Positions 1 to 64,000 are shown, counted from the first letter of the stretch. The stretch is DNA of 64,000 nt from Bilabrum cf. latius (GCA_965178125.1 OZ237758.1:744001-808000); one strand, 5' to 3'. The notes: a model not told the origin generated them from the sequence alone. Numbers and translations are program-made.

Positions 1-3000
1 GCAGGCCCGCCGTGCAGCACTCGCATCCTTCCGGAACTGCCTTCGCTGCTCCTTGGCAGGATCTTTGGGCTAGTTCTGCTCCTTCTACTTGGGCTCACTT
101 TTCTCCGGTGCCACCTTGCTTGACTTCTCCGAGCAGCAACAGGAGCAGCACAGCATCGACAGCAAGCAGGATGTCCAGCCCAAGTTCGGCTGGCTGTCTT
201 CGTCATCATCATTGTAGGTCTAGTGAATGTCCAAGGCACTCCCAGCGCTGTCATTCATGCCCGAGTTGCTGGAATCGCTGGATATGAAGGCGTCAACACC
301 AGCACCAGCAGTAGAGGCTACAGTGTCCATTTGAGGAGTGGGGGCGTTCAGGGCATCGTGACGGCTGCCTGCCCTCGGACTTGCCTGCACTGGCCAAGCA
401 CCGCGGGTCGAAGCATCGCGATTGGAATCCGCTCCAGGTCCCTTCTTGAGTATGCTCCTCGTGGACCTCTGCAACGTATCATCCCTGTGCCTGCTCTGCG
501 CGCTCATCCTACGTCTCCTGGTGGCAGCCAGGTCCCTCTCTGCTCTCTCCGTCACGATCGTGCCCGTGTCCTCGATCACCCGGATCGTGCGGCGGCCGTC
601 TGCCACAGTGGGCCTATAGGTGGCGCTACCACCCTCAGCTTCACCCCCCTCGTTCGATGTGGTAGACCCTTGCCTCGTGAGACTCATGGAACTTTGTGGA
701 GCAGGCGCATTGGGTGCACTTGGCTAGCCAGACCCACTATCGCCGTTCAACGGATCCTTCATTCCGTTTGCGTCACGGCCTGCGACTGGCACACTCGTGG
801 CAATCGATGCCCGGCGGGTGCGCCGCGGGGAGGCCCAAGAGTCTCCGGCAGAGTCTGCACCAGCCGCCATCTGCTCCCCGCCTGCGTCGTCCTTGCCCAG
901 CACCAGCCCAGTCATGGACCAACGCCGCTGCCTCCTCGGCTGACCCAGTCGACGCGACGACAGCTGCGAGGCGATGAAGCGGCCCGCCTTCGCGCTCACC
1001 TGCTGCGTCTTGCCCTCGCCCTCCTCTCGCACTCGGGACAGGTTGATGCGCAACGGAGGCTCAGGCGGATCCTTGCTCGCGTCCAGAGACTTGGGGGCGC
1101 GCCGAGCCAGCCTGGCTGCCTGCACTGGCCTGAGTACTGCCACCTGCACGTCAATACTACTACCAGATCCGGCAAATCGGATGGCATTGGCAAGGTAGTT
1201 CCTCACGCACTGCGCCAGCCTCTGTGTGTCGGCCACCACGGGTGGCACTTCCTCAAGGGCCTGCAGTCCGTCGTCATCGTACGCTGCTTTGCCCTCATCA
1301 ACAAGATCATACCCATCCTCTCGATCACTCAGCGACTCAGAGCCCTCTGTACCCAATGCCTCGTCTAGACCAGTGGCCACCTGCACCAGCGATGGACCCT
1401 GCGTGCCCTGCTTGCCATCTTCCTCAATTCCTGCAGCTGCATTCCGCGTGCTTGTGGCACGCACAAATTCGAGCGCTTCCGGCGGCAGCTCCCCATTCTC
1501 CAGCATCGCTCGTTTCTCGGCCAGCGACCGGGTCCGCTCATGCTGCTCCCTGCAGTCGTAGAACGACAGACGCATCGTCACGCCGCCCTCCTCGGCCTGG
1601 TGGATCAGCGTCACCAACGCAGAACGAATCGAGGATGCCAGCGTGCAAGGCCTCATCTTCAGCTGCAGACCCTGCGCCTCGATCTGAGCCATCAGCAGCA
1701 CGTCCGTGATGATGTGGTGCATCGCCACGCTGCTGGACCGCATGATGCGCACAGTAGACTCCATCTCCTCGCGGGCTTCCTCGATGGATGCCTGGTCCAA
1801 CCCCTCGCCCTGCTGCTGGCTCTCTACCATCTGCTGCTGCAGCTCCACCAGAGTCTCGTCCATCTGGTCCAGGCCCATGACCACGGAGGCGAAGGGCTGC
1901 TTGAGCTCGTGCAGGACGTACCGGGTGCGGGTCACGTGCCTCTCATTCTGTTCTTGCTCCATCTGCACCTTTGCGTTTATGGTTCGAATGGCCTCTGCCT
2001 CAGCTGTACGCTGCTCGACATAGGCCGTCACCAGGTACCAGACGAGAGCAATCACAACAAGTATTGCCAGTAGGAGACCTGCGATGAGGCCCCAAGGAAA
2101 CGGGGTCGGTTTGGGTGCCTTACCCCATGTGCCGGAGAGGGCCACTGTGGCTGGGCTCATTAGGCAGTTGTATCCAGATGCCCTTATGGGTCGCCGTAAG
2201 TGAACAAGCTGGCTTCCATCCAACTTGGGCTATTTGCTTGCCACTCTTATTATATCTGCCCTTGCACCGCCTAGTGAGTTGTCCGTCCCCGTTGACACTG
2301 TTCCGGCAATGCTCTCTGGCAGAGAGCCATCGGCATTGGCAAGTCCCAGTCCTGAGACATCCGCTTCTACTCCAGCCCCAATGTCCAGCGTTTTTTCGAT
2401 AGCATCAGTGCCAACGCCACGACTCGCACCTGACAAAACACTTTGCTACTCCAACAAGCTCAGAATATCGCTTTGTTCATCCGTGGTGGATGTAAAGACG
2501 ATTCGAAGCTCCCTTGGATTGACCCAGAACGAGATGTGCTTGCCTGGCAGCGGCGGGTCAAACTCGATCACGTCCTAACCAGCAACGCTCGACAGTGGCA
2601 GCATGTCCGAGGGCCGCGTCTGGTTGGAGCTGTCGCTGCTGCTGGCGATACTGATGTCTGGCATCGCCGTATCGCCGTCAAACCGCAGCGTGATACTATC
2701 GCCAGCATTGAAACCAGCATTGCCACCTTCACCGCTAGCCTCTGCACTGACTAGGCGAGGACAGCTTCTGACTGCGACGATGATCTGAATTCCAATCCTT
2801 GTGCTCTCGGGCGTGATGAGCTCGCAGGTCATGTCTTTGCACGCCTGGTCTCTCAAACCGTAGGCAGTCAAAGTCACGCTGCTTACTACAGTACGGCCCT
2901 CATCGTCAGTCACTGGTGGAGTGAAATCATAGCATGTCCCCATGCTACTTGTATACCCCAAATATCCTGAAAATGCGCCCGCGTGGTCCCACACTCGCAC

Positions 3001-6000
3001 GGTGTCATCCAGGGCTACATTTAGTCGAGACGCTAAAGGCCTCGGTGGGCCAGCTACCCGTCCAAATATGGCCAAGTATGGATTTGAAGACCCCGCCAGC
3101 GAGTCACCCCCTGCCAAATCTCGCAGCATTTGCTCCAAAGTCGTGGACACCACGTTCGATGCATCAGCGATCTCAATTGTCCCACGGCCGGGGCCTAGCT
3201 AGACGTCACCAAGCAATTGTGTCCCGACCAAAAAAGTCACGGCGTTAATGTCGGTATAGTCCCCAGCAGTTTGGAACGCATTTTGGGGAAGCTGGTACTA
3301 GTTCACACCCAAGGTAGGGTCGATCGAAGTCTCGTCGGTTCCTCCGCCTTCCACGCTCTGGACGGGGATGCAGATCCGAGTGGTCCGATTGGCTGGAATG
3401 ATCACGGATGGAGCCTCAATCGCAACCTTCGGAAATTTGCTGGGAACCCATTTCGCGCCGTAATGAAACGATGCGGACAATGCGTCGAGTGGAAACACGG
3501 GCGGCACGCCTCGCGACAATGAAGAGCTAGGAATGACTTCCCTTGCGTCTTGAAGTGTGCTACTGCGGTACGAAGCCAGCCGTTCCTAGATGCCACCATC
3601 GGGCATGGGTCGCAGCAGCTAGAAACCCCACTCAGTTACATAACCGAAGGACCGTGCGCGCTCAAGGGAATTTCGAAGCAGCTGTTTAAACAGGAGAGGC
3701 AACCTATCATCACTAGCATCAACATCACCCGCAGTCACCTCAGACCGCGTTTCTCTCAGCTGCTACACGAGCAGATCTGACCTGCCCGCTGGTGACCTGC
3801 CGTCGCTTGTTGTTCGAAGAGATATACTAACATCAGTGGGCAGGTTGACGCTGCCCTCGTCCCACCTCCCTGGGCTGCTCTCGTTGATCCACTGCCTGAG
3901 TGACCGCTGCATGCCAGTCCAGCCAAGGTGCTCCACCGGTGGATCGGCTACTCTGCCCATGGCTTCGTCGAACGCGCTCCGGAATGGACTGTTCGCAAGT
4001 AGGGACGCGAGGCTTCCGCTCTCTGCGAACGACGGCGAGTCGTCAAAGTTGAGCACTGTGAGCATGCGCGACGGTACGCGGTTCTCCGCGAGAGCTTGCG
4101 TCCAACCTTGTTCCGCTGCTCTACTATCGGACGGTTCGGCTGCCGCGCAGTCCGCCGGATTTCCATTCCGAAGTATGCCACATCTGGTTGCGTTGGCGAA
4201 GTCAAGCGGGTGCGAATAATACTGCGCTAGCACAGGCAAACCCCTCATTTCTGCTCGGATTTGAGAGTCTGGCACCACGCCAGCATGCATCCTAACGTCG
4301 TCCACTAGGCCTCTGAAGCCTGCCTATGGCTGATAGTCATCCTTGGATACCTCTGCGCCCAAGATCCACGGCAGGCCACGGGACAGCTCCGTGGCTAGGC
4401 GGCCGCCCTCCCAGCTGGTGTAGGGCAAAACGTGGCAGGAACTGACCTGGCCATTCAGCAGCATCTTCAGCAGGACAACATCGAAGCCACGCGAGAATGC
4501 CGAGGATGAGCCCGGGTGTACGGTCGACAAATGTATTGTTCCACACTCTCGTCTTGTTAGCACATCTGCAAAGCTCGGGACCGAAGATACTACCGAAGGC
4601 GTGTAACGCTACAAAACATCTACAGATATCGCCAAGTGCAGCTTTACTCCAGCCACCCCGGCAACGCTACCCTGAGCTGTTGGACTACCTTGGTCTACTT
4701 GTCCCGGTACAGCCACAGGCACCATAGATCGTCCTAGCTGAGCAGTGAGGCACGCAGACACCCCTTCAGGGCATGCACCCGGTGACGCGCTCAATCTGAG
4801 CGCAAATACAACGTCTCCAACGGCGCTCTGCTTGGCAAAAATCGTCTGCGTGGAGCTGGCGTGGAACGGCTGGATCCAGGCCTGCAAGGTGAACCCAGTC
4901 ACGATCCGGAAGGAGGGCAGCACCACATGGGAGCGAGCCCCGTCGAGCTGCACTGCCCCGTTCATGCCAGCCCGAGGAATATCTAAAGCGCGGGGCATCT
5001 GCGTCACCATAGAAGATATTGGTTCTCGTTGCACGGTGGACCGATCGAATCCAGCAGGCAGGGACACGTTCAGTCCCATCCACTCGGGGGCACAAGCGCC
5101 GGGGATGGCAGAGGAGCACTCCTGCAGCACGAGGCCAGCGCTTGCCTACAGGGCCAGGGGGTCAGGGTCCAGTCTGCCGAATTCAAAGTCAGCCTCGTCC
5201 CAGCTGGAACTGCCTGCATTAACGGCATCGGTGTCGATGACAGCAATCAAGAAGGGGTTGTCTGGCAGCAGCACGGCAGGTGGTGGTCCTACTTCGCGCC
5301 ACAGGCCTTTCTGTTGCATCCACCGTGCAACTCGAACGAAAGCTTGCTGTTTCAGTTGCCAGCTCAGAGACTTGCCGAAATCTCGAAGAGTCGGTGATTC
5401 GCAAGAGTAGTACCCCGGGTCACCGACAGCTGCAATCGCGGTTGCGATGGTTTGCAGTGCTTCGATCTAACCCGGCAGCAAGTCCTAAGAGGACGTCAGC
5501 AGATCGATAAACCCATTGCTCGTATCATGCAAGAACTCTGTTGTCGAATGAAACAGATCGCTTGCCGCCAGATCTCGCAGGTCTATTCCAACTTTTGCCG
5601 GTGATGCCCCTGCTCGGATCTGTGCGCTGGCAGCCGCCACAGCTGCGGCTGCATCATCTGCTGCCACCTAAAATAGCTTCAACCCACCCGGAGACGAGAG
5701 TAAGTGCAAGATCTTCTTGGGCCCGTACCCCTCGATTTCACTGCCAACTGCGCAGAGCACCGACCTGCTAATCCCCTTGGTCGTTGATGAAATGTATGCA
5801 CGCGTGCTCTGCGGCAAGCTGCCAGACACCATGCGCACCGCCTGATCAAGAAGCGCCACATCAAGCTTGGCGACGAGATCTTCGAAATAAGGCTAGGCAG
5901 CTATCGCGGCTTCGTTTACTCTCGGCATCCCGTCGGTTGTGTTGTATCCGTGCACACCATCCTCTCTGTTCAGCCTCAGCGTCTCAAACATGTCATGCAC

Positions 6001-8226
6001 CGCGAGACTGCCTGATCGTGCCCGGTCCTGGACGGCTACACCGCCCCTTCCTGGCACTGAACTTGCAACCAGACCCGTGAGTTGAGTTTGATAGTCTCCA
6101 CCTGACGTCATGATGCGCAAGGGTGGCTCGATGGGCCCTCCAGCTGGACGTCTGCGAGCAGATGACTGTGCGTCTAGTGTGCCGTACTGCCGATTGGCGA
6201 GGTAGTCCGCCACTTGTGGACCCAGCTCATCTTGCTCGCCCACAGCTATTACTCGTGGCGCATGTGCAACTGACACACTGCCTGACCTGGACCACGCGCC
6301 TTGCGTGGCCTGCATATAGTCGACGGGAAGCGCTTTGCTCCCGAGGGCAGTAAGCTGGCCGGTGCTGTTCCAAGCAGCTGGCAACACCCGAGATGCACAA
6401 ATCGAGTCGCGCAACGACTCCATTTCACTGTCTATCAGCGACATCCCACCCCTGTTCAGCCCCTCCCACCAGCCTACAGAGCTGTTCCGATCCGACCCAT
6501 TGACTGGCATGCCAGCCGAAGGATGCAGCCAAAGTCCTACCGCAGCCGGTGCGTCCGAGACAATTAGATCTCCCACGCCCTACGAAAAACTGAATGCCTT
6601 GGTCAGCCCGGGGCACACGCTCACAGCTGCGAGGCTGACATTCACCGCACCAGCACCAAGACCATCCAAACGCAGTGAAAAGTCGAGGACAGCCAGCAAG
6701 TGAGGCGAGGCGCCCTGTCCGTCGATGCGATCACCAAGCAAATACTAGACAGCAGCAGACTGGAATGCAGCTTCATCCCCACCCTCTGTCACAGCCAGCC
6801 TGCCAGCCTCCATCGCCGACCCGTACGCATCCAGCAGATCCCCCACCCTGCAAGCAGGCGGGAATCGGGCCTCCACCGCGGCTCTCTCTCTGGCACTCAG
6901 CAATGAGGGACAGAAACCAACGGGGCGGCTGTGGTAGGCATCCAACGAATCCAGGCTGGCCAGTCCCCTGACCCTCTCTTTCACGGCCACTGCTGTATAC
7001 CCCGGCATGGGTCTCCTGGCGTGCTGTCTCATGCGAGCCCTCCTCCACGGCGTCAGGTCGGTGCCGGGGAGGATGAACCGGGATGGGGTGCGCAGGGGGG
7101 GCGCGAGCAGGGCTGGCGTCAGTGCCCTGTCATTCATCCTGGTGCCCTTGTTCCCTGGCGGCCTGGCCATGGCCCTGAGTGCCTCGGGGACTGCTGCTAG
7201 CCTGTGCGACTCCTCCGCCTCCACGGCCTGTCGGATCGAGGGATGCAGCGAGTCGCCCATCCGGGCAGTGGTGCGCATGGAGCCCCTGTACACGTCCATC
7301 ATAGATACATTCTGAGGATGGTACGCCCACAAGCGCACCTCGTCCAGAACCCCGCACTCCATGAAGCCGGATACCTGGCTGCCGGCCGCTCTCTGGCCGC
7401 CTAGAATCCACTGCCGGGACTCGTGTGGCAATGGAAGATCGGCGCGCGAGCTCCGAGTCGCGATTAGCCCCTGGCACTAGGACTGAGTGAGAAACGATCG
7501 TGCGACCACGATGCCGTCCACTGCGACCTGGGCCACTCCGCAGCTCTCTAGCATGCTTCTGTCAAATACCCGAGTACCATTCGGGCTGAGAAGCATCTCT
7601 TCGCGAACAGCAGGGTTGGATGGCATTATACTTATTGACGCGGCAATATGTACGTTTCGTGTCCTCGCAATATATGCAATCGGTGCAGTTTCGACAGACA
7701 TACTTGCGCCAATTCCTCGTGATCCAAGCGGTCCTTGCTCTGCACTGACGGGAAAGTACTACCACATGAATCGAATGGTTAAATTACTCTGCCGAATTGA
7801 TACTGTATCCGGCGATTCGCCTCTGCGCCATAGTCGAAACGCAGAGCTGTACTTGCTCTCAGAGTACTCAGGCCGGTTGGCCCCTTCCACCAATGCAACT
7901 GATACCTGATGCAATCTAGAGACTGACTGAGACGATATGATGTAATTGATCTGCGGCTCGGAGCGGCCTGATAAAGAGGCATCCTGCAAGCCGAACCTAT
8001 CGCATAATTGTGTCCAAGTCTCCAGCAAGAAGCCGAGCGGCCTAACTTGAAACTACTCGGCGAACTCAGCCCACCGCCCAACATGAACGTTTAAAGCATT
8101 ATCAGATGATCCAGTAATAGGAGCCTTGTACGGCAGACCGCGTGTGGTGCATGCCAACACTAACGCAAATACCACCGATGCAGAACCAAGCCTTCGAAGC
8201 GCTCCGGTGGTAATTGACCCTATCAT
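1..8226 (-). CDS. Giant single-pass membrane sensor histidine kinase (signal peptide, LamG/ConA-like ectodomain, TM, HisKA, start of HATPase); runs off left edge; 24 in-frame TAG
   Basis: ORFs 220-687, 724-2223, 2230-2436, 2575-3153 ... 7759-8028 share one frame and are separated only by TAG. The nearest upstream TGA is at 8299. ATG at 8226 gives the hydrophobic leader MIGSITTGALRRLGSASVVFALVLAC. LamG-like motifs: AVQLDGARSHVVLP..FTLQAWIQP, GVLDEVRLW, GLVDDVRMH. TM: WGLIAGLLLAILVVIALVWYLV. H-box RYVLHELKQPF; N-box ADTQRLAQCVRNYLANAIRFA. Confidence 0.85.
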
Positions 8227-8386
8227 GGGTCTGGATGAAACCCCTCCTTCTAATCCAACTATCTAGGCTGAAAGGAGTGTTGTTTTTCTATCACCACCTC
8301 AGATTGAAATGCGTCGAACTTCCGCTAGACTGGTCTTCATCTTCAATTTGGTCGGCCAAGCGCCGATGAATCCTTCATAGTCTGCT

Positions 8387-10271
8387 TCACAGCTTAGCCA
8401 CGCGATACACTCCATAGGCCGCAAGCCCGAGTACCCCTAGCGCTGCTAGCCCAGCTCCAGCAACGGTTGCAACCGGCCGCAACGGCCAATGAATCCTCCT
8501 GACCCTTGCCCCGTTCCCGCCGCCGGGCAGCTTGCGACGGTACTCTCTGAACATCCGAAGAGCGTGTTGGCCAGCCGGATGTGCTGCGCAAAGAATGAAA
8601 TGGGGAGAGCATTGTAAGGAGCTTGGGCGGCTTGTTTCGTATGTCTTGGCACTTTACAGAGTGCTTGGGCATGCTTCTGTTCGCATTCGTTGATGCACCA
8701 TACATGCGATGGAAACCCAATGCCATCAGAGTCTCTGTAGGCAGATGCATTCATGCATTCATGCAGACTGCCTTTGATCGCTCACCTCGCAGCATTAGCA
8801 CCTGCTCCCTCATCCGGTCGGGCACTTGCTCAGGGGCGGGGAGCCATGCGCCAGCCCCCATATCCGGCTGCGGACAAATGAGTATAGACGGGGAGATCGA
8901 ATGCAATGGCAAATACGAGTTTCACGGCGCTCGCAGCCGCCTTGGGTGCACCCATGCCTAGCACGAGTCGAGCCGACCATGTTTTCACGCAAGTACAAGC
9001 ACAAGGAGAGCACCGTGAGATTCTCACCCCAACGAGCAGCGCAGGCGCCGCGAGAGCCGCGAACGTGAGATCCGCAGCAGTGAAGTGCTTCCCCTCGGCA
9101 CCAGCAATGAATGGCCTCGTGGGAGCCGTCCATTCTCCCGACCGGACGGACCACTCATCCGCCTTGGGGAACACGTCCTTCTGTAGTTCCGGTTTACCCT
9201 CGACCGCACCCGTGGTGCACCTTGCAATGCCAGCGGCGGTATCAGCACCGCTAACAGAAACAGAGGGGGATATAGTGGCCCCTGCACCCATTGCTGTTCC
9301 CCGGCTCCGAGTCCGCACTCCCTCTCCACCGACAGTGCCATCCGAGTTCGACGAAGCTGATCCCACCGTGGCTGAAGCCCTCCCGGCGGTCATTGAGCTC
9401 CCAGATGCTTGATGGGGGCGGGTGGAGCCTCCTGCCTACCTTTCGTTTCCCTACTCTGCTGCTCCCCCTTCTCCTCTCCCTCCCCTTCCCTCCTCGCCGG
9501 CAACTCTCTTGCAGCCGAGCCTCTCTGCCACAAAGTCGAACTCTCGCTCCATGCGCACCAGATCGCGACCCACGGTATCAGAGCGGATGCGAAGGGCCTT
9601 CCTTATCAGGTTCGCGAAGGTTCCTCTGAAAGGCGTTACCAGGGCGCTCTGCCACAAGGGCGCATTCAGGACGATCATGTCACGAAGCAGGGCCATGTCT
9701 TGGAGCAGGTAATAGTACGCGAATCGCCGAGATGCTTGGCCCAGTACCCCTCCGAATCGTTCCTCCAATGCGATGACGTCCTGCTCGTCCTCCTCTGAGT
9801 TGCCGAACAATCCGCGCGACCCCAGCGGGACCCCGGCAACCGCGGCGTGCAGCCCCGGAGAAACTCCCCGTGGGGAATCATCGCCGCTCTTGGACTACTG
9901 GCGCTCCAATTCGAACTAAATTGCCATTCTTTCCGATGCATGCGCTACTATTTGGTTCGAAGACACCAGGTCGGTACCATCGTGGCACTCGAGTGCTGGC
10001 GTCGCAAACTTGGAAGACGCTGCAATGTATCAGAGGGCGTTGTTGGTGAAGGGAGTGCCATTTGAACAAATCAAAGTATCGGAAAATATCAACAGAAGTC
10101 CTCACTCTTGCTACCTTTGCCCGCAGTTCGTCGTGGGGCGAGGAAATGCAGCATGGGCAGGTAGCCTTCTTCGACATACTACAATCCAGCCAGTTCAAGC
10201 GCCCACCGCGCCTTATCCACAAAGTGCGAAAAACATATGGTGACAAGTTTCCCAGTGATTGCGTCCGACAT
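8387..10271 (-). CDS. Glutathione S-transferase-like protein with C-terminal hydrophobic anchor; 4 exons (10271-10115, 10019-9028, 8867-8786, 8583-8387); 5 in-frame TAG
   Basis: Spliced translation gives LVTICFSHFVDKARWALELAGL*YVEEGYLPMLH, TPALECHDGTDLVSSNQI, FTAADLTFAALAAP, LRAHPAGQHALRMFREYRR, then VATVAGAGLAALGVLGLAAYGVY and TGA. All three GT-AG introns keep phase. Confidence 0.85.
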
Positions 10272-20576: not shown

Positions 20577-20809
20577 GCGAACTTCATTTGCTATGATTAT
20601 CAGCTTTACACATTTTATTCATAAAATTGTGCGTGTTGATCTGGATCTGATCCGATCAGAATAGAACCAACGAATCCAACGTCTCACTTCAAAATCACCA
20701 AGGTGTTACTACAGTACCTTTGGGCATCCGGATGCGCTCTACAGGTAGCATGTTATCCCTGTGAAATTGCACACGCTTACATCCGGCTTTGCATCCATCG
20801 GATGTAGCT

Positions 20810-35366: not shown

Positions 35367-35373
35367 GGAAGGC

Positions 35374-42017: not shown

Positions 42018-42096
42018 CCAACACCACGAGGCTCTGGGCCACCGCCCTGCCCGCCAGCTTACCCAGCCGCAGCCGAGCCTCGTGGGGTGCGCCACT

Positions 42097-44971: not shown

Positions 44972-45112
44972 CTGCTGCTGAAGCCGCAAAATGCTCTGCA
45001 AAAATTGCTCCGAATCTCGACAGTCTGCCCGATAAGTTCCGCTACTCGCAGCAGTCTACCACCTTTACGCAGTGGCACGACCAAGGTTTTCGTTGTACTC
45101 AATACGTTTCGA
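44972..45112. promoter_or_regulatory. 141-bp divergent intergenic region, probable bidirectional promoter (methyltransferase / PI4K)
   Basis: Head-to-head ATGs at 44971 (-) and 45113 (+). Confidence 0.5.
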
Positions 45113-52400: not shown

Positions 52401-53611
52401 TCTACACGTGCCTGGCCCGCGTGCTCTTCATGCAGGAGGATCCGGAGCTGAAATTCGACGTGTTCATCCGCCCGGTGATGGAGGTGCTGGACCAAATCAC
52501 CCCCCGTGTGGCCGCCAAGGAGAACTCTGAAGAGCTATCGCGGCGCGTGGCGGGCGTGGCCCGTGATCTGAGGGGGATCGCGGCCGCGGCACACAACAAG
52601 CGGACGTACAGGCTGGTGTACGACGCCGTGTTCCCCAGCCGCATCACGCCATTAGTCCAGAGCTGCCAGGTCTTTGCGGACAAGCCCCACGTGAGCAATC
52701 CGGTGCTCAAGTGTTTGGCAGAGCTGGCCTTCAACAGGGGCATACGGATCAGCTTCCCTTCGTCCTCCCCGAACGGGATCGTTCTGTTCAAGTCTCTTGC
52801 CAACGCGCTCGTGCTGTACCAAGGCGCTGCACTGAGGCTGCCGAGACCCCCACCGCAGCGGGTATATCCCGCCAGGTATAAAGGCCTCATGGTTGCCATG
52901 CGTGTGCTAGAGAGGGCGCTTCACGGCGGGTACTGCCCCTTTGGTGTGTTCGAGTACTACAAGGACGCGTGCCTGAAGAACGCGCTCAAGACGGGCCTGG
53001 TGATGATGCGCGACATCCCGCCGCAGGACCTGCCCATGCATCCAAAGCTCAAGCTGGCGTTCTACGACCTCTTGAGCATCTTGTTTAGGAACCACATGCC
53101 CACTGTGGCTGCCGTGCCCCCGGGCGTGTTCCAACCCCTCATCAAGCTGATCAAGAGCGGCCTTGAGGACCTCGACACGGGCGCGAGCACGTCGGCGGCA
53201 CAGGCAGCCGATGCATTGGCCACGTCGTACGTGAAGGGTGTCCACAAGGAGGCCCCTGAGACGAGGCTCCTCACGGCACACGTCAAGGCCATGCCCCAGA
53301 TATTTGAATACCTCATGCAGCACCTCTTCTGGATCGTCGCATTCAGTGACGTCAGCAACCACTACACGCTCTCCAGGCCGCTGCTCAGCCTCATGGTGGC
53401 AGCCGCGAGAGTGAAGGGCAGCGCCTTCGCAGAGATGAGGGAGAAGATCCTCAAGGCGCAGAAGCACCAGGAGAAGAGGGAGAAGCTCCGGGGCGAGTTC
53501 AAGCTCCTCGTGGAGGGCATCACGTCGTCTCTAGATGCGCCCAATCGGGAGCGATTCGCGAGGAGGCTGACCCTCTTCAAGCTTAGGGCCAAGAGCCTCG
53601 TGCCGTTGTGA
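49493..53611 (+). CDS. XPO7: Exportin-7 / RanBP16-17-like; exons 49493-49772, 49988-50148, 50315-53611; 2 in-frame TAG in exon 1
   Basis: Motifs RLQMRNYMMRFLAKKGP, ITKHSWF, HRRTAVSFRD, CLGFDFVGT, LASVRRGLF, RVKSNFQLSE, RTKFYTCLARVLF, RDLRGI, FPSSSPNGIVLF, SRPLLSL; ends TGA. Confidence 0.92.
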
Positions 53612-53759: not shown

Positions 53760-54944
53760 TCACTTCCTCCTCCTCCTGCCCGGCCCCTTGGGCCTAGACG
53801 ACAGCATGCTCTCCTGGGACTCGCCACCAGCAGCCGCGGCGCCCTCCCCTGCCCCCCCGGCCGCCGCCCCGCCCCCGCCCCCGCCCTTCGCCTTGCTGAT
53901 TGCCTCTTGCACGTCGTCCGCATCCCTAGCCTCATACTGTGCAGCGATCGCGACGCCGGCGGCAGCGGCAGCCGTCACAAAAGGCCGCTTCGCCGTGGAG
54001 CTGACCATCCTGGGCCTGGCCTTGGCGGTGTCGGGGCACACAAACAGCATCGCCACGGTGCTCGACGCGTCCTGCTTCTCACCGCCTTCGCCGGCACCGG
54101 CCGCCTCCTTATCTTCTTCCTGTGACGAGTGCGCGGAGAGTGGGGTGCCCCTGAGCAAGTAGTAGGTTGGCTTGCCATCCTCCTTGGCTCGGTCCGCGAG
54201 GGAGGGGAGCTCTGCCTCGGTGGGCGGCGACTCTCCGGACTCTACCAAGGTGAGACGCTCCGTCTTCATGCCCACCCTCGCCGCGATGAACCCCAGCGAA
54301 CCTCCAGCGAAGGATCGCAGCGCGTCCTGCAGCTTTTCGGTGGCCTGAAACGGGACGGCTGCCCCGCTCGACGCGCCTCTCGTCGGCGATTTCATCAGGG
54401 GTGATCCAATGCTTGCCGAGCCGGAGTCCTCAAGCGCTTCTGCGGCGGCAGCTTCCATCTCGCGGGCGGCGGCGGCTTCGGCCTCATCGGCCTGGGCTCG
54501 CAGCTCTTCCACGTGAGACATAACTCGCGCGTGGTGTCCCGATTTGGATACCCAAGCCTCGAACTCGGCGAAGTCGATATCATCTTCTGTCGTTGCCTGG
54601 TACTCGCCGCGTACTTCGAGTCCAGCCGCGGCCAACGCGCCATGCACCACGGATACAGAAAGGGCAACCGGCATCTTGGCAATACTCTTCGCTGAATCTG
54701 GGGACAGGTGCACGATAGCAACCTCTCCCGATGCCAACTGAGTAATAAACACACAAGGACGAGAATCAGCGTACGCTGCAGCGATGTTGTTGGTGAAAAG
54801 GGTTTCGGGATCTTTCTGAGTTGACGCTACCACTATCTCGGCCTTTGGCTGCTTCAACTCGATTCCCTTGTCGCCCTCTCCCGCAGCTAGAGACTCCAAT
54901 ATGCTCTTGAGATCATCTCCTACCCGTGCTCCGCCAGATACCAT
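53760..54944 (-). CDS. TWF: Twinfilin-like actin-binding protein (two ADF-H domains + basic tail)
   Basis: Two ADF-H-like units (HLSPDSAKSIAKM; FVCPDTAKARPRMVSSTAK) and C-tail SRPKGPGRRRRK resembling the twinfilin KPKGP tail. Probable start is MVSGG at 54944. Confidence 0.75.
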   Translation of the reverse strand: MVSGGARVGDDLKSILESLAAGEGDKGIELKQPKAEIVVASTQKDPETLFTNNIAAAYADSRPCVFITQLASGEVAIVHLSPDSAKSIAKMPVALSVSVVHGALAAAGLEVRGEYQATTEDDIDFAEFEAWVSKSGHHARVMSHVEELRAQADEAEAAAAREMEAAAAEALEDSGSASIGSPLMKSPTRGASSGAAVPFQATEKLQDALRSFAGGSLGFIAARVGMKTERLTLVESGESPPTEAELPSLADRAKEDGKPTYYLLRGTPLSAHSSQEEDKEAAGAGEGGEKQDASSTVAMLFVCPDTAKARPRMVSSTAKRPFVTAAAAAGVAIAAQYEARDADDVQEAISKAKGGGGGGAAAGGAGEGAAAAGGESQESMLSSRPKGPGRRRRK

Positions 54945-55119
54945 TTCTGCGGCTCTTGCTTGTGTCCCCACTGCGAAGCTAAAATCCGTATTTCCAATGT
55001 TTGGTAACGAACACTTTGCTGGAAGCTTGCCCGATCCACCATACTGCCATTCCCCTGGTCGTCCAGGCTGTCTATCGCGCACTTTCGCGGCCCTATCTTA
55101 TTTTAATAATATACGTGTC

Positions 55120-58100
55120 ATGGACAGGGTGAGACAGTGACGAAACAACCGATTACCTTCGAACGATGCAGCGATACAACAATAATTCAAAACCTAAATA
55201 TCTTGTATCTGTGCTGCTTGCCGTAATTCGCAGTTTCTGTAGCGGCAGCCTAAACCAGAAGCTGGTACAGTTTCTGAGGGTGCTTCTGCCGCGGAGTCTG
55301 AGAGAAAAGACGATTCAAAACCTAGCCCGGCTGCAACGCAATCTGCACCGGCGCAGCAGGTGCCGGGCGCCCAGGCGTCTGAACCTGCGAGCTCCAGTAG
55401 CCCGACGGCTCCGCCTTTGCAGTCAGGCTCCAAACTGTCGGGTGGCAACCCTGCGTAGTCCAGCTTGGCTTCGCTATCCAGGAGCGGCTCATCGAAGAGC
55501 TCGGCATCCTCAGCCAGCGCATCCTCTAGCTCTTCCTCAAAAGCAGCCCCTGGAAAGAGCCTCAGTGCCATCATGCGAGATCGGTAGCAGGCTTCAGCTC
55601 AGCTGCAAACTCTTTAGAAGGAGCTTCAGAAGCTGACCCGCCAGGAAACCGCCATCCGCAAGCGTGCCGACGACTACGAGCGCAAACACTTGGAAAAAGA
55701 AGAGGCCCTGCGGAAGCAATTGCAGGCGCTGTAGAAGCCGTCCAAGGTGAGGTACACATGTAATCCCCCGCACACTCTCGGGCGGCATTCCTTGTCAATC
55801 CGTGGGTCGCAGACACTACGGTGCGTCCAGTGGACACGTCCCCGAGCACTTGCTCCGCGCCCCCGGGCCTTCCCCCCCCCCCCCCCCCTCACACCCCACC
55901 AACCGACACACCGCGTACCCCGCCGCCAAACTCATCCTCCGCAGAAGCGCTCTACCCAGCCATTCCCTGCTCCCGACGCCATGGTACCCTTGCTGCAGCG
56001 AGCCGCGGATTTCGCACAGACGCAGCAACGCCAGCAGCAGCAGCAGCAGCAGCAGCAGACCAAGCCGGCCGGCAAACCGGAAGCAGCCGCTCAATCGGCC
56101 CCGTAGTCGGAGGGCAGCGCCGCCCCCGCAACCCCACCCACCGGCGCGAAGACAAAGGCTAGGCCAAGCCGGCCCGCCCCCCGGGACCTCGCAGAGGCGC
56201 TTCGGCTGCCACACGCCTGCGTTGGGGACGTATTGCAGGCGTGGGATTTCCTCCGCAGGTTCATACGCCGCGGCTTCCTCGATGCCTCCCCCAAGGCGTG
56301 TGCGGAGGGCATGGTGGACTGCCACGAGGACGTGCAGGTGGACGATCCTGCCACGCTGGCGGCCCGGCCGGCCGATGGGACCGCGACCGTGGGCGTGAGG
56401 AGCTCTGGGCGGAGCCGGATGGCTGTTGCCGGTAGCAATGATGCGTCAGCGACTGCTGGTACGTTGCCTGGGTCTAATTCCCTGGAAGTCTCCTCTTCGG
56501 CCACCTCAGGCAGCGGCTCTGCTCTGCAGTCGGATCGAGCAGACAAGGCCGAGAAGATGCAGGCTTCCGGACTCACGCTCGACCTGGGAAACCTGGAGCT
56601 GGAGGAGCTGAGCATCGCGCTGCGGCGCCCCGAGTTCCGCTGCGCCCGCGTGCTGAACAGGCTGCACACCGCTCTGCTGAGGGTCGTGCTGGAGGATGTC
56701 GAAGGCAGCCTTGAAGACCGCGCCAAGAGCGGCAAGCACGGCCACGGGAGCCACGGAGGGGGGCACGGGTCGCTGATGCTAGAGGCGGCCGAGGGCGTCA
56801 CGGGAGCCTCTGCTTCCCTACGGGCCCCCAAGCTCGCCATGCTGTCGCCGCTGACGTGGCCACATCTCCTCGGGTGAGACAAAGAGAGCACTGTGCGGCC
56901 ACCTGCACGCTGACGAGTTGCGATGAGCTGCGGGGTTTCCGCTGCTGCAACAGACCCCAACCATAGCGCGTTGCTCTTTCTGTGGGTCACCCACGTCTTC
57001 CATTCTTGTGTTTTCTCCATGGTCGCAGCTAGATGCTTGAAGACGGTCTCGGAGATGACTGGGAAGAGTTCCAGGATCTCGCCACGCCCGGTAAGATCAA
57101 GCCCTTGTGTTGCAATTGTTCCGACGGAGGGCCTTGCTTGCGTATCCCGTTGCGGCTGTGTGCTTGCTTGCCTTGCGTGCGCTTGGTACTGTGCTTGTAC
57201 CGGTGTATCTTGACACCGCTTAAATGCCTCTGTCTCTACTGTTGGTTTCACCTAAATGGCTCCCACTCATCCCTCTGTGGTCGCAGGCGTTCGGGCGGCC
57301 ATCCGCCGCCTCAACAAGGCAGACTACGCCGCCCTCTCTATCGCGGAGCGAGTGGCCATCCTCAAATACCTGGTGGACTGCGTCACTGCCACCATCAATT
57401 TCTCCGAGATGATGGACGACGTGGACGTCCAGCGACAGGAGGCCGTGAAGGAGCACGCCTCCGAGGAGGAGAGGTACCTGGCAAGAATCAAGAAGCAGAA
57501 GCAGGAGGCCAAAGAGGCTAGCGCGGAGAGGGTCGAGAAGCTGCAGGAGCAGCTCAAGCTGGCTCTGGAAGAGCTGGGCGAGGACGACGACAGCATGGCA
57601 CCCAAACCCAAGGCAAAGGCCAGCTCGGCCAAAGGCAGTAACACCTCCAAGGCAGCTGCGAGCGGGAAGAAGCCGAAAAAGGAGGGCGAGAGCACGGCCT
57701 CGAAGCAGGCAAAGCTGCCCGTGGCCTCCAGCGGGCAGGCTGCCATGGAGGACGGCGAGCAGGCCGGCTCTGGCGGCACAAAGGCAGGGGGTGCGGACAA
57801 GGACGAGGTGCTCGAAGTGGAAGACAGCTCTGGCGAGGAAGACGAGGGCGAGGGCGATGATGAAGAGGAAGATGATGATTCCGACCTCGATTCGGTCGGT
57901 AGCTTCAACTCGCAGGCGAGCGAATTCAAGGAGATGGGCAGCGCGGCGGTGAGGCAGAAGCGGCTGGAGCACGACAGGCACAGGAAAGCCAGGATCGAAG
58001 AGAAACGAAGGCAGAAGCGACTCGCCAAGGCCGCAGAAACAATCGAGACCAAGCGGACCGAGCTGATTGCGGAGATGAAGGGTGCTGCAGCCGCCAAGGA

Positions 58101-60849
58101 CATCGACAGGCTCAGGCAAGCGATCACGCGGGCACAGGACAGCGCCTGCGAGTTTGTGATCGGGAGGGGCAAGGGCAAGCGCAGGTCTCCCAGCCTGCTC
58201 CGTGCCATGATCGAGGAGCAGAGGCTGGAAGAGACGCTCGAGATCTCTGCGATCAACGAAAGAGCAGAGGAGAACCGCCTGCGCAAGCTCAGAAGGCACT
58301 TCCGTCGGTTGGAGCCCCACCGCACCCAGGCACTCTGCTTAGGACGGGACGGGCTGCGCAGAACATACTGGTACTACACGCACGACAGGACGGCTATTTA
58401 CGTGGAGCAGCCCGTTTTTGACTCTGCCGCACAGGAAGTGGCCGTCAAGGAGGCTGCCAGACGAGCGGCACACAAGGCCGCCAGCGCGGGCGGCATCGCG
58501 AGCGTGAGCGGTGCGACCCCGCTCAGGCCTGTCCTCGCTTCCACTGGAGCGGCGGGTGCTGTGGCATCCGACAGAAGCGGTTCCTCGTCCTCTGGAGCTG
58601 CGGCCATGTTAGACGGGGACGAGGGCGAGGCGTAGGCGTCGTCCGCACCGGCTGCTGCCGCTCCCCTTGAGACGGCGGTTCCCACGGTGCTGGTGGGCGG
58701 CACCTGGGACCGGCTGGACGACAAGCTTCGGATCGCGGCCGAGGAACGACTCGCGGAGGACGCAGTGATCGCGCAGGCCGCGATCGCCCAGCGCTAGCCC
58801 AAGCTGGAAACGGTCGTGTGGGGCAGGATCGAGACTTTCGAGGCGGTGCAGCAGCTCCTCGACTCGCTGGACCGGCGTGGGGAGGACGAGGACGATCTGT
58901 TCCGGCAGATTGAGGCGTGGTCCCAGGTTCTCTCCAGCTCGATCCCCACTGCTGAAGAGCTGGAGGAGGAGGACGAGGCCGGTCCGCAGACAGACGACGA
59001 AGCCATGGAGGACGATGAGGGCGAGGACGAGGAGGGTGCTGGCAGCAAGGGAGGCCGCGGCGTCGGCGCAAAGGAGGTTGAGGAGGAGGAGATGGATGGC
59101 GCCGTGGCCATCGCCATCAAGCGCTCTATGCGGGGGAACAAGGCGCCCAGAGGTACCGTCGAGTCTGACGACGAGGGCGAGGCCGAGCTGGAGCTAGACA
59201 GCTTCAAGTACGGCGGCGGCGGGGTCGGAAGCGGGAGCATCGATAGCGCCAGTGCACGACCCTCCAGGGAGGAGCGAGAGGAGATGAAGGAGAAGCAGCG
59301 CCTGGAGGAGCTGGAGCGGGCGAGGAACGGGGGCAAGACGAGGAAGAGGGGCAGGGTCAAGTACTCTGCCTTCATCCCCAGGAAGAGGAGGCGCACTGAG
59401 AGCGATGCTGCCGTGGAGCAGCGCACGCCTGGCAAACTCTTTAGCGCATTCCGCAACCAGAGGCGAACGACGCTGCGTCGCCGACTGGACCTGGGTCACG
59501 GCGCGGGCTCTGGCTCCGATGGAGACAGCGACGAGGACGAGGACGGCAGCGACAGCGAGGTGGAGGAGATGCTGAACGAGTCGCTGTTCGAGGGAGGAGG
59601 CGGAGTGGAGGGCGTGGGGAACAAGGACCACCCGTACGACGAGCTGAGTGCGCCTGCAGGCAACTTGTGCAGTCTGAGGTCGACCTTACTGCGCATGGAG
59701 GAGCAGCTGAGGGACGCCCTGCATGCCGCCAAGGCCCCGTGGTACGTGAAGGCAGGCCAATCCACCGGTGGATCGTCCGGTGCGGGGGCGGCGTCGTCAT
59801 CGTCGTCTTCGTCCGCGTCTTCGTCTTCTTCGTCTCTGATGAAGCTCAGCGTGGCGGGACCCATCGACCTGAGCGCCTTGCCCCCCCCGCGCGGCGCGTG
59901 GGTCACGGACGTGAGAACTGCCACAAGTCCCCACCAGCTGTCCAAAGCGGCGCTGCTACTGGAGGCACAGGCATATCACCCCCAGAGGGCCAGGAGGCTC
60001 GCCAGGCTGGCGGCATCTGCCGGGGAACGAACCAAGGGCGAGGGGGAGGATGAGGAGGCTGGCGGGAAGGCTGCAGCGGAGGATGACCCTGCGACGGGCT
60101 GGTCTGACGGGGAACAAGAAGACGAGGAGGAGCAGGAGCAGTCCAAGGGTAGTGCCAAGGGGGCCGCATCCGAGGGCGGTCAGGCCGCGATGGAATCCGG
60201 CGAGGAGGAGGAGGAGGAAGAGGAGGGCAGCAGGAACGGCGAGGAGGACGAGGACGAGGAGGACGAGGAGGAAGCCGACCTGACACAGGGGGCAGTGTGG
60301 ACGCTCCGGTCGCTGAGGAGGCGCTGGAGGTCCGCGGCGAGGCGGGCCGTCACGGTGCATTCCATTGCGGTGCTGTTGCTGGAGCTCCAGGAGCGGGCGG
60401 CAGTGGCCGGGCTGTGCCCCGCGCCCACCTCGCTGGTGGTGCGTGCCACCAGGAAGGCCGCATTGAAGAAGGAGAGAGAGGAGGCGGCCCGCCGCAGGCG
60501 TGAGGCCCAGAACAAGAAGAAGAGCGGGAAGGGCGCCTCGGGCTCGTCCCGAGGAGGTTCCGCATCGCGCGGCGCCGCTACGGCTGGCTTCGAGGAGGCC
60601 TTCGGCTCTCGTCGGAGCTTGCGGGAGAGGACGAAGCGAGTGTCATACTCTGACATGGGAGGCGGTGGTGGTGACTCGGATGATGAGGACTACCACAGGG
60701 GCAGCAGGAGGGGCCGCCGGGGCGTGATTGATTCCGACGAGGAGGACGAGGACGAGGAGGCCGAAAGGGCCAAGGCCGAGCTCATGGGGTTGCGCCGCTC
60801 TGGGCGTGCGGCTGCTTCGAACGCTCGTCGAAACATTCGGCGATCGTGA
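55120..60849 (+). CDS. DDT + WHIM1/2/3 chromatin-remodelling (ISWI partner) protein; exons approx. 55120-55128, 55234-55746, 55945-56873, 57029-57090, 57287-60849; ~9 in-frame TAG
   Basis: DDT: VGDVLQAWDFLRRF ... LHTALLRVVL. WHIM1: LSPLTWPHLLG* ... DYAALSIAERVAILKYL. WHIM2: LGRDGLRRTYWYY. WHIM3: WGRIETFEAVQQLLDSLDRRGEDEDDL. GT-AG introns are phase-consistent; ends TGA. Confidence 0.85.
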
Positions 60850-61250: not shown

Positions 61251-61342
61251 AGCGCAACAACATGCAGTAAATCAGATTAAGTTGCCCAGGTGCAACCGCC
61301 AAGATCACTTTGGCAAAAAGGGTAGCAGAAGACAAATACATC

Positions 61343-64000
61343 ATGTCTGAGCCATACAGTTAGGCGTTAACAAGTGATGACGATGCGCTGCCTCGAAGCC
61401 TCTTGCTTGGCGAGCTTGACCCAAGATTGATCAACCGAACGGGCTTGCTTTCGATGCGGCTGAAAGCTGGAAAGCAAAGTGTGAAGCGACTCATGGGATT
61501 CTTCTCTGCCCGCGCAGCTGCAGAACGCGCGTATGCAGCCCACATGATGGACTGGGCAGGGAAAGAGGCGGCGGCTGGGAATGCAGGAGTTGGGTTGGAT
61601 TCTAGCGTTGCAGCCGCTTTGGAGACGGCTCTTCGGCATGCGAAACAAGAAGGAAGCAGAAGAATGCAGTATGCGCTATTTTTGCAGCGCGAGGTAGCCT
61701 AGAGTCAGTCTCATTTGCTAGAACAGCTTCGAGCGCGGAAGGCGGATCTCGAACTGGCCGAGCGCGAGAGCGAGCGCATCAGGTCTGCAAGTCAGGAAAA
61801 CATGCTTAGAATCCATAGGTAGCACGAGCAGCTAACCACTGAAGGCCAAAGGATAGCAGACCGCGTCCGCACTCTGCCTCGCGGCTCGGCCGACAAGGAA
61901 GTGTGGCAGGGCAGGCTGCGGGACATTCAGGGCAAGATCGGAGCAGCGGAGCAGGCACTCCTCAAGTCGTCCGAAATGCAGCGATCCACGCACGCCAGAT
62001 TTGCTAGAGAGGAGAGGAAGCTGGCCGCGAGGTACGTGCAGCTGGAGGAGAGGCGCCTCCTCGAGACCTCACGAGTGCTCGTTCAGGCAGCCGAGCGCGA
62101 GAGGCAGCTGCTCCGATCCTCGTATTCAGAGGTTGCAACAGCCCTGACCAAGGCCAAGGAGGTGTCCCCGTCCAGGGAACTGGGCCTGTTTCAGCGCAAG
62201 GCGGTCGCTAGGCTGGTCAGGGATCGGGTCGTGTCACAGCACGCCCACCTGGCGGCACTGCCTGATGACCCACGCAAGAAGGCGCAAGAGGAGCAACAGC
62301 GCCGCGCAGAGGCGGCTGCGGAACTGCAGCGGGCGGCGGAGCGGCGGCAAGAAGCGCAGAGAAGCCGGTGGGCCGCCGTGGCGGGTCAGGCCGAGGCGGG
62401 AGGGCGGCAGCTGTTGACCTGGCTGGAGGGAAGGGACGGCAGCTCGGCGGCAGCTGTGGCCAGTGGAGGTGTTGATGCAGGTGCTGGCGCCGATGCTGGT
62501 GGCGACGGCTCTAGTACATCCCAGTCCGGACGCGCGATCGAATCTTCATCGTCACCATAGGAAACCCCGAGTGACGGCGCCGCCACAGGCTCAGCGGCCG
62601 TGCTTCCAGGGAGGATGGATCACACGGCAGCGGCTCTTGCACGTGCGCTGACCGTGCGACCCTCACGCCCCGACACGTCAGTGGTCGTAGTATAGGCACG
62701 CTCGTCGCACGATTCCAGCGCGCTGAATCGGAGCATGGAGGCTGTGCTTGGGCCACTGAGGGTGGCCTGTTTCGAGACATTCGTGCTGGGCAGCGACCAG
62801 GTGCAGGACACTGCGCTGTCGAGCATGCACCTAGTACCTGATGGGGACACTGCGCCTGGCGTGCGATTCAGGGCCACGAGACACGCGGCTGCCACGCTGG
62901 GAGTGACGCGGCAGCAGAAGCACCTGCTGCCGGATCTGCTGAAGCTGAGCGTAAAGCACCTCCGGCAAGAGGCCAGCGACAAGAAGCGCGGCGCGAAGCC
63001 CGGTGCCGGCACAGATGCTCATTCGCATCAGCTTCTCCCCCGCTTGCTCAGAGACTCCGTTCGATTGCGACTGCACATGCTCAACGAGACGGCAACATCG
63101 GCAGTGACGATGCGGCGCTAGGGTACCAGGCGTCATGCCATCGTTGTGTGCTGCGCGCTGCAGGCTCTGCTGGCTCAGGTACTGGATCAATCGAGTCCAC
63201 CGGCTGGGAAAGCCGAGGAGGAGAAGGGCACTGCCACAGAGCTGCAGTCGGAGGCGAAAGGGCTCAGAACGGCGCTGTCTGGTCTGTGGACTCGCATATT
63301 CAAAGCCACCGAGGAACCAGACGACGCAGACGCAGGCGGTACAGCTGGCCCAGACGCAGACGCTGACAGCTCGTCTTCGGCAAAAGGCAAGTCGAAGGCA
63401 AAGGGCAAAGGCAAGGCCGGCAAGACCAAGCGCGGCTCAATGGGTGGCAAGAAAGCAGCCGCTGAGGACGAAATCAAAGCAAAGGGGCAGTCGGGCAGTG
63501 CCAAGGGCAGCAAGGTGAGGAGGGGGTCGATTACGAGACCTAGGCGACTTTCCTCGGCGGTTTCCGTGGAAGGCCTAGCCAAGGAGCTGCACGGTCTCGC
63601 CGACGGCGTGTGTGCACTGGTGGCGCGAGTGAGACGACGGGCTGCTTCTGGAGGGGACGGAAGCAGCGACGATGAAGGGAATGGGGGGACCGAAGATGAT
63701 CATTCGCTGGCATCGTACTGCATCTCGCTGGAACCGCTACCTCTGGGGCTGCGATCCATTATGCTTAGCGTGTTTCTGGGCTGCACTGCCCTGGAATTGC
63801 GAGCTGCAACTGCCGTCACTGGCGTTGCACCCGCTGGTGCTTCCTCGGGAATTGCCACCCCTAGTGGAGCGTCAGGTACAGGCACGCACAACTGCATACT
63901 CGTGGAGAGTCCACATCATCGCGCTACAGACCCAGCAGCGACCGTTGCCGATGCTGCCGGCAGCAAGACTACACCTGGTGCAGATGGCAGCGATGCTGAT
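61343..64000 (+). CDS. F-BAR/FCH-like coiled-coil protein; runs off right edge; 6 in-frame TAG
   Basis: ATG 61343; one frame to the window end, broken only by TAG (61361, 61700, 61820, 62558, 62693, 63119). FCH-like motif LSMRLKAGKQSVKRLMGFFSARAAAERAYAAHM followed by coiled coil. Confidence 0.7.

Follow-up and report, generated by a model that had tools for sequence, protein, structure and literature searches.

The nuclear genetic code behind a 64-kb stretch of DNA from Bilabrum cf. latius (GCA_965178125.1 OZ237758.1:744001-808000; the whole stretch, numbered 1 to 64,000, is referred to as the window) departs from the standard code in the meaning of UAG. It is close to certain that UAG is a sense codon at all, and we consider it probable that UAG specifies glutamine, that UAA and UGA are stops and that the organism is a stramenopile near Cafeteria. 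Judged by its gene content, which includes TOR, PI4K, exportin-7, U-box and C2H2 finger genes, the window is eukaryotic nuclear DNA. Its G+C content is approximately 62% overall and varies between 55 and 70% along the stretch. The longest frames, together with two of their TAG codons, are the following:

1-8298, minus strand: histidine kinase-like (HK-like) membrane protein frame, 2766 codons, 25 in-frame TAG (24 past the first Met), open at the window start
15372-20576, plus strand: CLU-domain/TPR protein (CLU-TPR) frame, 1734 codons, 17 TAG, TAA end at 20574-20576
19581-19583, plus strand: TAG at CLU-TPR residue 1404, an outlier at a position of the TPR core mostly occupied by Leu
20810-34227, minus strand: TOR exon 2, approximately 4472 codons, 11 TAG; FATC motif followed by TGA (20810-20812)
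37465-41220, minus strand: U-box protein frame, 1251 codons, 8 TAG (7 past the first Met), TGA end; Pfam U-box
45428-49150, plus strand: PI4K (type III beta-like) frame, 1240 codons, 4 TAG, ending with GIL and then TGA; Pfam-supported
49124-49126, plus strand: TAG at PI4K residue 1233, an invariant Gln seven codons ahead of the conserved C-terminus

With TAA and TGA as sole stops, frames of 4524, 2766, 1734, 1251, 1240, 1197, 1152, and 910 codons are obtained. The longest frame comprises 1295 codons under the standard code and still 1295 codons if TAA or TGA is taken as sense; only TAG as sense lengthens the longest frames (from 1295 to 4524 codons). In 14 frames with 17,278 codons, 88 in-frame TAG, no internal TAA, and no internal TGA were counted. 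They are distributed over the frames of HK-like (25), CLU-TPR (17), TOR (11), U-box (8), DDT and F-BAR (6 each), PI4K and orf8830 (4 each), WHIM and MT16 (2 each), and XPO7, ZnF1, and ZnF2 (1 each), with none in ADF. Approximately 7 of the 88 are situated upstream of the first Met of their own frame and thus possibly outside of the coding sequence. The initial annotation was essentially right in this respect: it had listed about 90 TAG for 13 genes, the three richest having 24, 17, and 11, compared to 88 in 14 frames in the recount, where 24 of the 25 TAG of the HK-like frame are past the first Met.

Expected counts were taken from the stop rates in the two other frames of the same DNA, which amount to 2.05 TAA, 6.58 TAG, and 17.87 TGA per 1000 codons. 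If unconstrained, approximately 35 TAA, 114 TAG, and 309 TGA would be expected in frame, compared to 0, 88, and 0 observed. In case of TOR, the 4471 codons in frame contain 11 TAG and neither TAA nor TGA, while the other two frames hold 4 and 2 TAA, 14 and 19 TAG, and 61 and 65 TGA. Conserved domains were found 3' of TAGs in TOR (FRB, kinase, FATC) and in PI4K (kinase, C-terminal motif); the 11 TAG of TOR are located between conserved domains, from the HEAT/mTOR domain to FATC, and 3 TAG of PI4K in the supported part of the protein. Intact motifs downstream of TAGs had also been claimed for exportin. This holds for TOR and PI4K; exportin is a weak example, as its sole TAG precedes the first Met. 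That UAG acts as a sense codon, the central claim of the initial annotation, is borne out by frames which are lengthened in this way only and by UAA and UGA, which never occur inside the frames and are the sole codons at their ends.

The TAG share of the putative Gln codons (TAG, CAG, and CAA) is 2-6% in XPO7, WHIM, and TOR, with a G+C content at third codon positions of 0.77-0.82, and 18-22% in HK-like and CLU-TPR, with 0.59-0.63. Across genes, this share parallels the use of CAA. TAG behaves as a non-preferred synonymous codon.

By design, each frame was made to stop at TAA or TGA. Of the 14 frames, 12 end inside the window, 11 with TGA, one with TAA (20574-20576), and none with TAG, and two are open at a window edge. 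The single TAA at 20574 and the lack of TAG ends had been described before, together with 12 TGA ends, a number that has to be lowered to 11. TGA directly follows the homology-defined ends of TOR, where FATC is matched to its last position, and of PI4K. TAA forms the upstream boundary of 7 of the 14 frames, and adding TAA as sense to TAG extends the frames at their edges only. Given a CAA:CAG ratio of 110:560, approximately 17 in-frame TAA are predicted if TAA also encoded Gln; none was observed. With no internal occurrence in 17,278 codons and TGA at the conserved ends of TOR and PI4K, UAA and UGA stay stops, as was originally proposed.

The most informative single codon is TAG 1233 of PI4K. 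In a search, 2179 PI4K homologues passed E<=0.001, and the alignment comprised the 120 best of them. At residue 1233, 115 of these 120 carry Gln, with 4 gaps and 1 Glu (MAFFT), and so do 119 of 119 homologues aligned by BLAST. The TAG is followed by RCSMGIL and then TGA, which matches the C-terminal R..xGIL of the homologues. Since the residues past this TAG fit the C-terminus of the homologues, it is read through, and this at an invariant Gln.

For a broader estimate, a Codetta-like tally was applied to three proteins. Profile hidden Markov models were built from query-anchored alignments of the homologues only, TAG was set to X, and log-odds were summed per codon. CLU-TPR was represented by 150, PI4K by 124, and TOR by 7 homologues, the latter being the matches among 8000 candidates in a search dominated by low-complexity words. 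As a control, 59 of the 61 sense codons were recovered, with ATA (n=16) and TTA (n=2) as the misses. For TAG, with 22 sites of at least 2 homologues each, Gln received 15.8 bits and the next residue, Lys, 4.1 bits; Lys is the runner-up for CAG and CAA as well. In resampling with random sets of 22 sites, 2000 per residue, and a Gln margin of at least 11.7 bits as criterion, the codons of K, E, S, L, W, Y, R, D, A, and T each gave 0 of 2000 false Gln calls, while true Gln codons reached the margin in 1283 of 2000 sets. Gln was always kept upon leaving out one of the 22 TAG sites at a time (smallest margin 4.6 bits). The single-site tally for TAG gave +14.7 bits for Gln, +3.3 for Glu, -5.5 for Ser, and -29 for Leu. 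The initial annotation had UAG stand for an amino acid; codon-meaning inference, run on these three genes, assigns TAG to one residue. As far as these alignments can tell, UAG is most likely read as Gln.

Relatives of the window were found on several levels. P0008 (R1), a Logan-assembly protein cut exactly at TAG 1233, shares 98% identity with the PI4K kinase region. Among the best 120 of the 2179 homologues, this region is 62% identical to a cluster with two Cafeteria roenbergensis proteins and does not exceed 53% identity to named oomycetes, Triparma, and Hondaea; the nearest named relative among the matches listed is thus C. roenbergensis, a stramenopile. The fragments P0134, P0172, P0231, P0264, and P0282 are 74-92% identical and begin and end at stops. 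P0231, P0264, P0282, and P0008 each end just before a window TAG, and P0134 ends opposite a window CAG. P0282 shows Gln at TAG 1571 of the HK-like frame (nt 3586-3588) and ends just before TAG 1667. The metagenome locus L001 (58% G+C) encodes a kinase domain 88% identical to that of the window PI4K, and its PI4K frame of 992 codons contains 8 TAG, 0 TAA, and 0 TGA, with TAG positions differing from those of the window. A search of genome contigs with PI4K found no relative. Judged from the sequences of these relatives, in-frame TAG use is common to at least two further related lineages.

A maximum-likelihood tree of the PI4K kinase region (30 rows, a single gene, stramenopile top hits only, midpoint root) unites the window, R1 (P0008), and L001 with 100/100 support; the stem of this clade is long, and its sister (100/98) is the clade that contains Cafeteria. 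The placement in a GC-rich stramenopile lineage, which had been offered as a possibility, agrees with this position next to the Cafeteria group. In NCBI, the Cafeteria proteins have full-length annotations (1220 and 1470 amino acids), which suggests a standard code in Cafeteria. Together with the outcome of the literature search given below, in which no stramenopile case was found, this full-length annotation would fit a putative independent origin of the reassignment.

Contigs assembled from runs of three studies were compared to the window by counting the listed zero-mismatch contig pieces over the 28 TAGs of CLU-TPR and TOR. All 28 of 28 TAGs are covered in run X1 (first study), 27 of 28 in X5 and 6 of 28 in X6 (both second study), and 7 of 28 in X7 (third study). 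One X7 piece, 19199-19608, contains one differing letter at an unlisted position. No evidence was drawn from parts without cover in X5-X7 or from other contig joints, which have short sides and lie in repeats. A systematic C-to-T assembly error, which the initial annotation had considered, is very unlikely to be the source of the TAGs, as contigs of three studies agree on them.

A contig of X5 joins position 34227 to 34383 and omits 155 nt delimited by GT..AG on the TOR strand; the X1 contig is continuous here. Splicing of 34228-34382 results in a Met-initiated TOR N-terminus, with the following features:

34228-34382, minus strand: TOR intron, 155 nt, GT..AG on the strand of the gene; the cut is maybe one base further on
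34383-34443, minus strand: TOR exon 1, coding part, with ATG at 34443-34441; spliced translation (29 protein letters not shown)

Over TOR (20683-34227), the pieces listed for X5 are free of differing letters and keep all 11 TAGs. The intron-less contig is cDNA-like and therewith a hint against editing, not a proof. No RNA run is present among the sequencing runs listed for the window. At 20419 on the plus strand, contigs of X5 and X6, thus of the same study, match rightwards and are preceded by approximately 250 unrelated letters; a splice that was not recognised, a chimeric contig, or a different transcript close to the 3' end of CLU-TPR may each account for this junction.

Several points speak against the reading of UAG as Gln with UAA and UGA as stops, or reduce its weight. 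The Gln call is derived from 22 sites in three genes, and 4.5 of the 15.8 bits come from PI4K 1233 alone. On average, a TAG site is supported by 0.72 bits compared to 1.16-1.21 for CAG and CAA, and TAGs are therefore mostly in weakly conserved positions. They were found mostly in weakly conserved or lineage-specific segments, in case of TOR mostly in lineage-specific insertions, and the TAG within the U-box occupies a variable position with N, P, or T in solved structures. CLU-TPR residue 1404 is Leu in 88 of 136 aligned homologues and also in the close relative P0264, and the TAG of ZnF2 faces TGG (Trp) in the paralogue ZnF1. Altogether, TAG is paired in close relatives and paralogues with Gln (5), Lys (3), Arg (2), Trp (1-2), and, once each, Leu, Ser, Glu, Ala, His, Gly, and Val; two of them were counted by eye from the CLU-TPR repeat in translation. 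Except for Arg (CGC), Ala, His, Gly, and Val, these partners are single-base neighbours of TAG. As any sense codon will show such neighbours where constraint is weak, they say little on the meaning of TAG. The varied partners show a fast turnover of TAG and leave room for looser decoding. With regard to termination, UAA is represented by one frame end without C-terminal homology, in addition to its absence in frame, and in frames without C-terminal homology the true stop may be a late TAG. Finally, the kind of run X5 is unrecorded, with the guess "probably DNA", and its intron-less contig could thus represent an intron-less allele instead of cDNA.

How far these points favour a different explanation was weighed for three cases. 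UAG could be sense without being simply Gln, either with another residue (Lys or Glu) or with loose near-cognate decoding and several residues inserted. The varied partners, with Lys three times, Arg twice, Trp once or twice, and Leu, Ser, and Glu once, fit this idea, as do the TAG at a Leu-type TPR core site, Lys as second-best call, and the single-site tally without PI4K 1233, in which Gln leads Glu by 10.2 to 5.8 bits. Nevertheless we regard it as improbable, since Gln is ahead by 11.7 bits, a margin reached by 0 of 2000 sets of 22 sites each for Lys, Glu, Leu, and Trp, and since a TAG occurs at an invariant Gln in the window as well as in a relative. At sites under weak constraint, partners one base away would be seen with any reassigned codon, and near-cognate decoding would presumably be costly with 88 TAG in 17,278 codons and up to 25 per gene. 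Slightly less probable still is a context-dependent UAG of the type known from Condylostoma, karyorelict ciliates, and Blastocrithidia, sense inside genes and terminator near some transcript ends. Late TAGs are indeed present at CLU-TPR residues 1669 and 1688 of 1734 and at residues 2693, 2738, and 2743 of the HK-like frame, and since only TAA and TGA were allowed to close a frame, a gene that truly terminates at a late TAG would go unnoticed. However, TOR and PI4K, the two whose C-termini could be aligned, both stop at TGA. The TAG of PI4K that lies seven codons ahead of its end precedes conserved residues and hence is read through near the 3' end, and 0 of 12 frame ends need a TAG.

By far the least credible explanation is that the TAGs are artefacts or are not translated, be it by systematic C-to-T assembly error, editing of UAG, location in introns, or pseudogenes. 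Nothing specific speaks in its favour, although the RNA status of run X5 is unproven. On the other side, the contigs of three studies agree at the TAGs, and the same gene of a second species, from an unrelated metagenome (L001), carries TAGs in different places. Introns or pseudogenes would bring in TAA, TGA, and frame shifts, of which frames of up to 4472 codons hold none, and the 155-nt TOR intron is the only splice supported in the stretch covered by run contigs. UAG recoding of the pyrrolysine type, which concerns few sites in specific enzymes (methyltransferases) and goes along with pyl genes, was rejected in view of 88 sites spread over unrelated eukaryotic genes and fitting Gln, no search aimed at pyl genes having been made.

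Under the reading of UAG as Gln, UAG would be an ordinary sense codon for glutamine, with UAA and UGA as terminators. As UAA is not sense, the code would therefore be that of NCBI table 15, which reads the PI4K TAG (residue 1233) as Q. By analogy to the case described in PMC5304391, UAG would be decoded by a tRNA-Gln with the anticodon CUA, which pairs with UAG and not with UAA and is one base away from tRNA-Gln(CUG). Only the anticodon CUA reads UAG without UAA, and such a tRNA-Gln(CUA) is therefore expected. By the same analogy (PMC5304391), eRF1 may have lost or weakened its recognition of UAG. No tRNA gene was detected by ARAGORN in the window or in L001, L003, and L004, an Rfam scan at gathering thresholds gave 0 matches, and the eRF1 gene is not located in the 64-kb window.

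A variant of this mechanism is a reassignment that is young and still loose, with imperfect fidelity of UAG or a residual terminator role near some 3' ends. This is unlikely, though it deserves somewhat more credit than any of the explanations weighed above. New TAGs may in this case arise freely from CAG, AAG, TTG, TGG, TCG, and GAG, with a fast turnover between sister lineages. If true, the GC-rich stramenopile clade would be a live intermediate of stop-codon capture and not the bearer of a finished table-15 code.

The remaining features of the window are:

8830-10029, minus strand: unnamed putative frame orf8830, 399 codons, 4 TAG, TGA end, without Pfam family
14338-14866, minus strand: duplicate of the 3' end of TOR, comprising FATC and a portion of the kinase domain, with Pfam FATC and PI3_PI4_kinase in the six-frame scan
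36253-37236, minus strand: C2H2 zinc-finger gene ZnF1, 1 TAG, TGA end; Pfam-supported, paralogue of ZnF2
42468-43544, plus strand: C2H2 zinc-finger gene ZnF2, 1 TAG opposite TGG of ZnF1, TGA end
43691-45064, minus strand: Methyltransf_16-domain frame (MT16), 2 TAG, profile positions 12-126 of 174 matched
50153-53611, plus strand: exportin-7-like frame (XPO7), 1 TAG before the first Met, TGA end; Pfam TPR_XPO7
53760-55097, minus strand: cofilin/ADF-domain protein, 0 TAG, TGA end
55198-56877, plus strand: DDT frame, 6 TAG, TGA end; weak Pfam DDT
57256-60849, plus strand: WHIM1/WSD frame, 2 TAG, TGA end; Pfam WHIM1 and WSD
61271-64000, plus strand: F-BAR (FCH) protein frame, 6 TAG, open at the window end; Pfam FCH

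Besides the genes named at the outset, those for CLU/TPR, cofilin/ADF, DDT-WHIM-WSD, and F-BAR are backed by Pfam, and Methyltransf_16 as a fragment. Support for the CLU-TPR frame consists of TPR_12, TPR_10, and a weak CLU match; TOR shows mTOR_dom, FAT, FRB, PI3_PI4_kinase, and FATC. In case of the HK-like frame, all Pfam matches are below threshold, namely HisKA with 22.6 bits (cut-off 26.9), a partial HATPase_c, and Laminin_G_3, and a comparison to shorter proteins gave a single match. The label "histidine kinase" of the initial annotation is therefore to be taken as weak, with HisKA below the cut-off and HATPase_c matched only in a piece; the long TAG-rich frame itself stands. As no Pfam family matches orf8830, its coding status is only putative. 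A PDB search with the F-BAR region gave 0 matches. Six-frame Pfam scans of the unannotated stretches detected a cyclin exon, a TOR fragment, and ZnF2, and no more conserved TAG-bearing genes. The Cyclin_N match (approximately 11102-11254, plus strand, E 3e-9) is not surrounded by a long frame; presumably it represents one exon of an intron-containing cyclin gene in the unannotated 10-15 kb stretch.

The genome appears to be intron-poor, with one intron supported in the stretch covered by run contigs, the 155-nt intron of TOR after the first 20 codons. The exportin-7-like frame lacks N-terminal exons, and as the exportin and PI4K frames are both without N-terminal parts, we infer that further introns exist. 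The Methyltransf_16 domain is cut short, and an intron is therefore likely; the MT16 frame continues into sequence of an inverted repeat, so that an intron and a disruption by duplication are both possible. The DDT and WHIM1/WSD frames (55198-60849) are probably one gene split by an intron. With approximately 4490 residues, TOR (20810-34443, minus strand) has nearly double the 2400-2700 residues usual in the homologues found, the extra length being due to long Ala/Gly/Ser-rich insertions between the conserved domains.

Several repeats were observed in the window. The copy of the TOR 3' end (14338-14866) is 99% identical to 20812-21340 (self-BLAST, 529 nt, 5 mismatches), keeps the in-frame TAG, and continues upstream to approximately 15000. 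Compared to TOR it has lost an internal stretch, and it probably represents either a segmental duplicate of recent date or a pseudogene fragment. An inverted repeat of approximately 2.3 kb and 90% identity (35368-37615 and 42095-44435) flanks the U-box gene. Each arm contains a C2H2 zinc-finger gene and a copy of the C-terminal membrane-anchor segment of the U-box gene, and ZnF1 and ZnF2 are identical in 280 of 326 aligned residues, with an extra finger in ZnF2. A tandem repeat of 186 nt with 95% identity (15676-15861 and 15856-16041, plus strand) is located in the N-terminal region of CLU-TPR, with a TAG in one copy opposite a Gln codon in the other. Read depth is raised over this repeat in all runs because the copies cross-map. 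Furthermore, a repeat of 277 nt with 93.5% identity connects 34862-35138, upstream of TOR, and 37825-38095 in the 3' part of the U-box gene.

Reassignment of UAA together with UAG (UAR) to Gln is known from many ciliates, hexamitin diplomonads, some ulvophytes, and Amoeboaphelidium, in which tRNA-Gln(CUA) is known. Gln as the (in the window, probable) new meaning is common to these classic codes and to the window, but UAA is not sense in the window (0 in-frame TAA versus approximately 17 expected). Reassignment of UAG only has precedents as well. In Iotanema spirale (Fornicata), UAG encodes Gln and UAA and UGA are stops (PMC5304391). Its tRNA-Gln(CUA) is derived from tRNA-Gln(CUG), and its eRF1 carries T32G in the GTS motif; in a rhizarian with reassigned UAG, eRF1 carries L69A (PMC5304391). 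In both taxa, UAA stayed the dominant stop (PMC5304391). The window lineage would thus share with Iotanema the UAG-only change to Gln, the retained UAA, and the predicted mechanism. Iotanema, however, belongs to the Metamonada, whereas the window lineage belongs to the stramenopiles, with approximately 62% G+C and TGA as main terminator (11 of 12). UAG-only codes with Gln also occur in the ciliate Protocruzia tuzeti and in two phyllopharyngean lineages (PMC11687900). Although their code is the same table 15, ciliates are alveolates with many code variants, and the window lineage is a GC-rich stramenopile flagellate. Ciliate macronuclear genomes are AT-rich. Other UAG-only codes are those of the rhizarian exLh (Leu) and of Scotinosphaera (Ser) (PMC5304391, PMC11687900), and in the ciliate PL0344 UAG encodes Glu and UAA Lys (PMC10553269). 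In these three, UAG is likewise decoupled from UAA, but to a different amino acid than Gln.

No nuclear stop-codon reassignment in a stramenopile or bicosoecid was found in the full-text literature, a provisional result since few subscription journals were covered. An overview of stramenopiles (PMC11412368) touches on genetic codes only in a reference to mitochondrial codes, and the available part of the report on the Halocafeteria seosinensis genome (46.8% G+C) contains no mention of its code or stop codons (10.64898/2026.06.25.734631). With approximately 62% G+C in the window, H. seosinensis was rejected as its source. While UAG-only reassignment to Gln as such is already known, this suggests, provisionally, that the stramenopile and GC-rich setting would be new and the first case of its kind.

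Codes that split UAG from UAA are rare; a fornicate, a rhizarian, a green alga, and a few ciliate lineages are named in PMC5304391 and PMC11687900. For the organism of the window, a practical consequence is that gene prediction under the standard code truncates its proteins at each TAG, for which the database fragments P0008, P0134, P0231, P0264, and P0282 are examples, so that the public proteome is fragmented. A GC-rich genome with TGA as main terminator bears on the question of how GC pressure and stop usage allow the capture of UAG. As the trait occurs in no fewer than three related lineages and the sister Cafeteria, a cultured model, is annotated under the standard code, the change would be datable, and its tRNA and eRF1 steps could be compared directly between close relatives.

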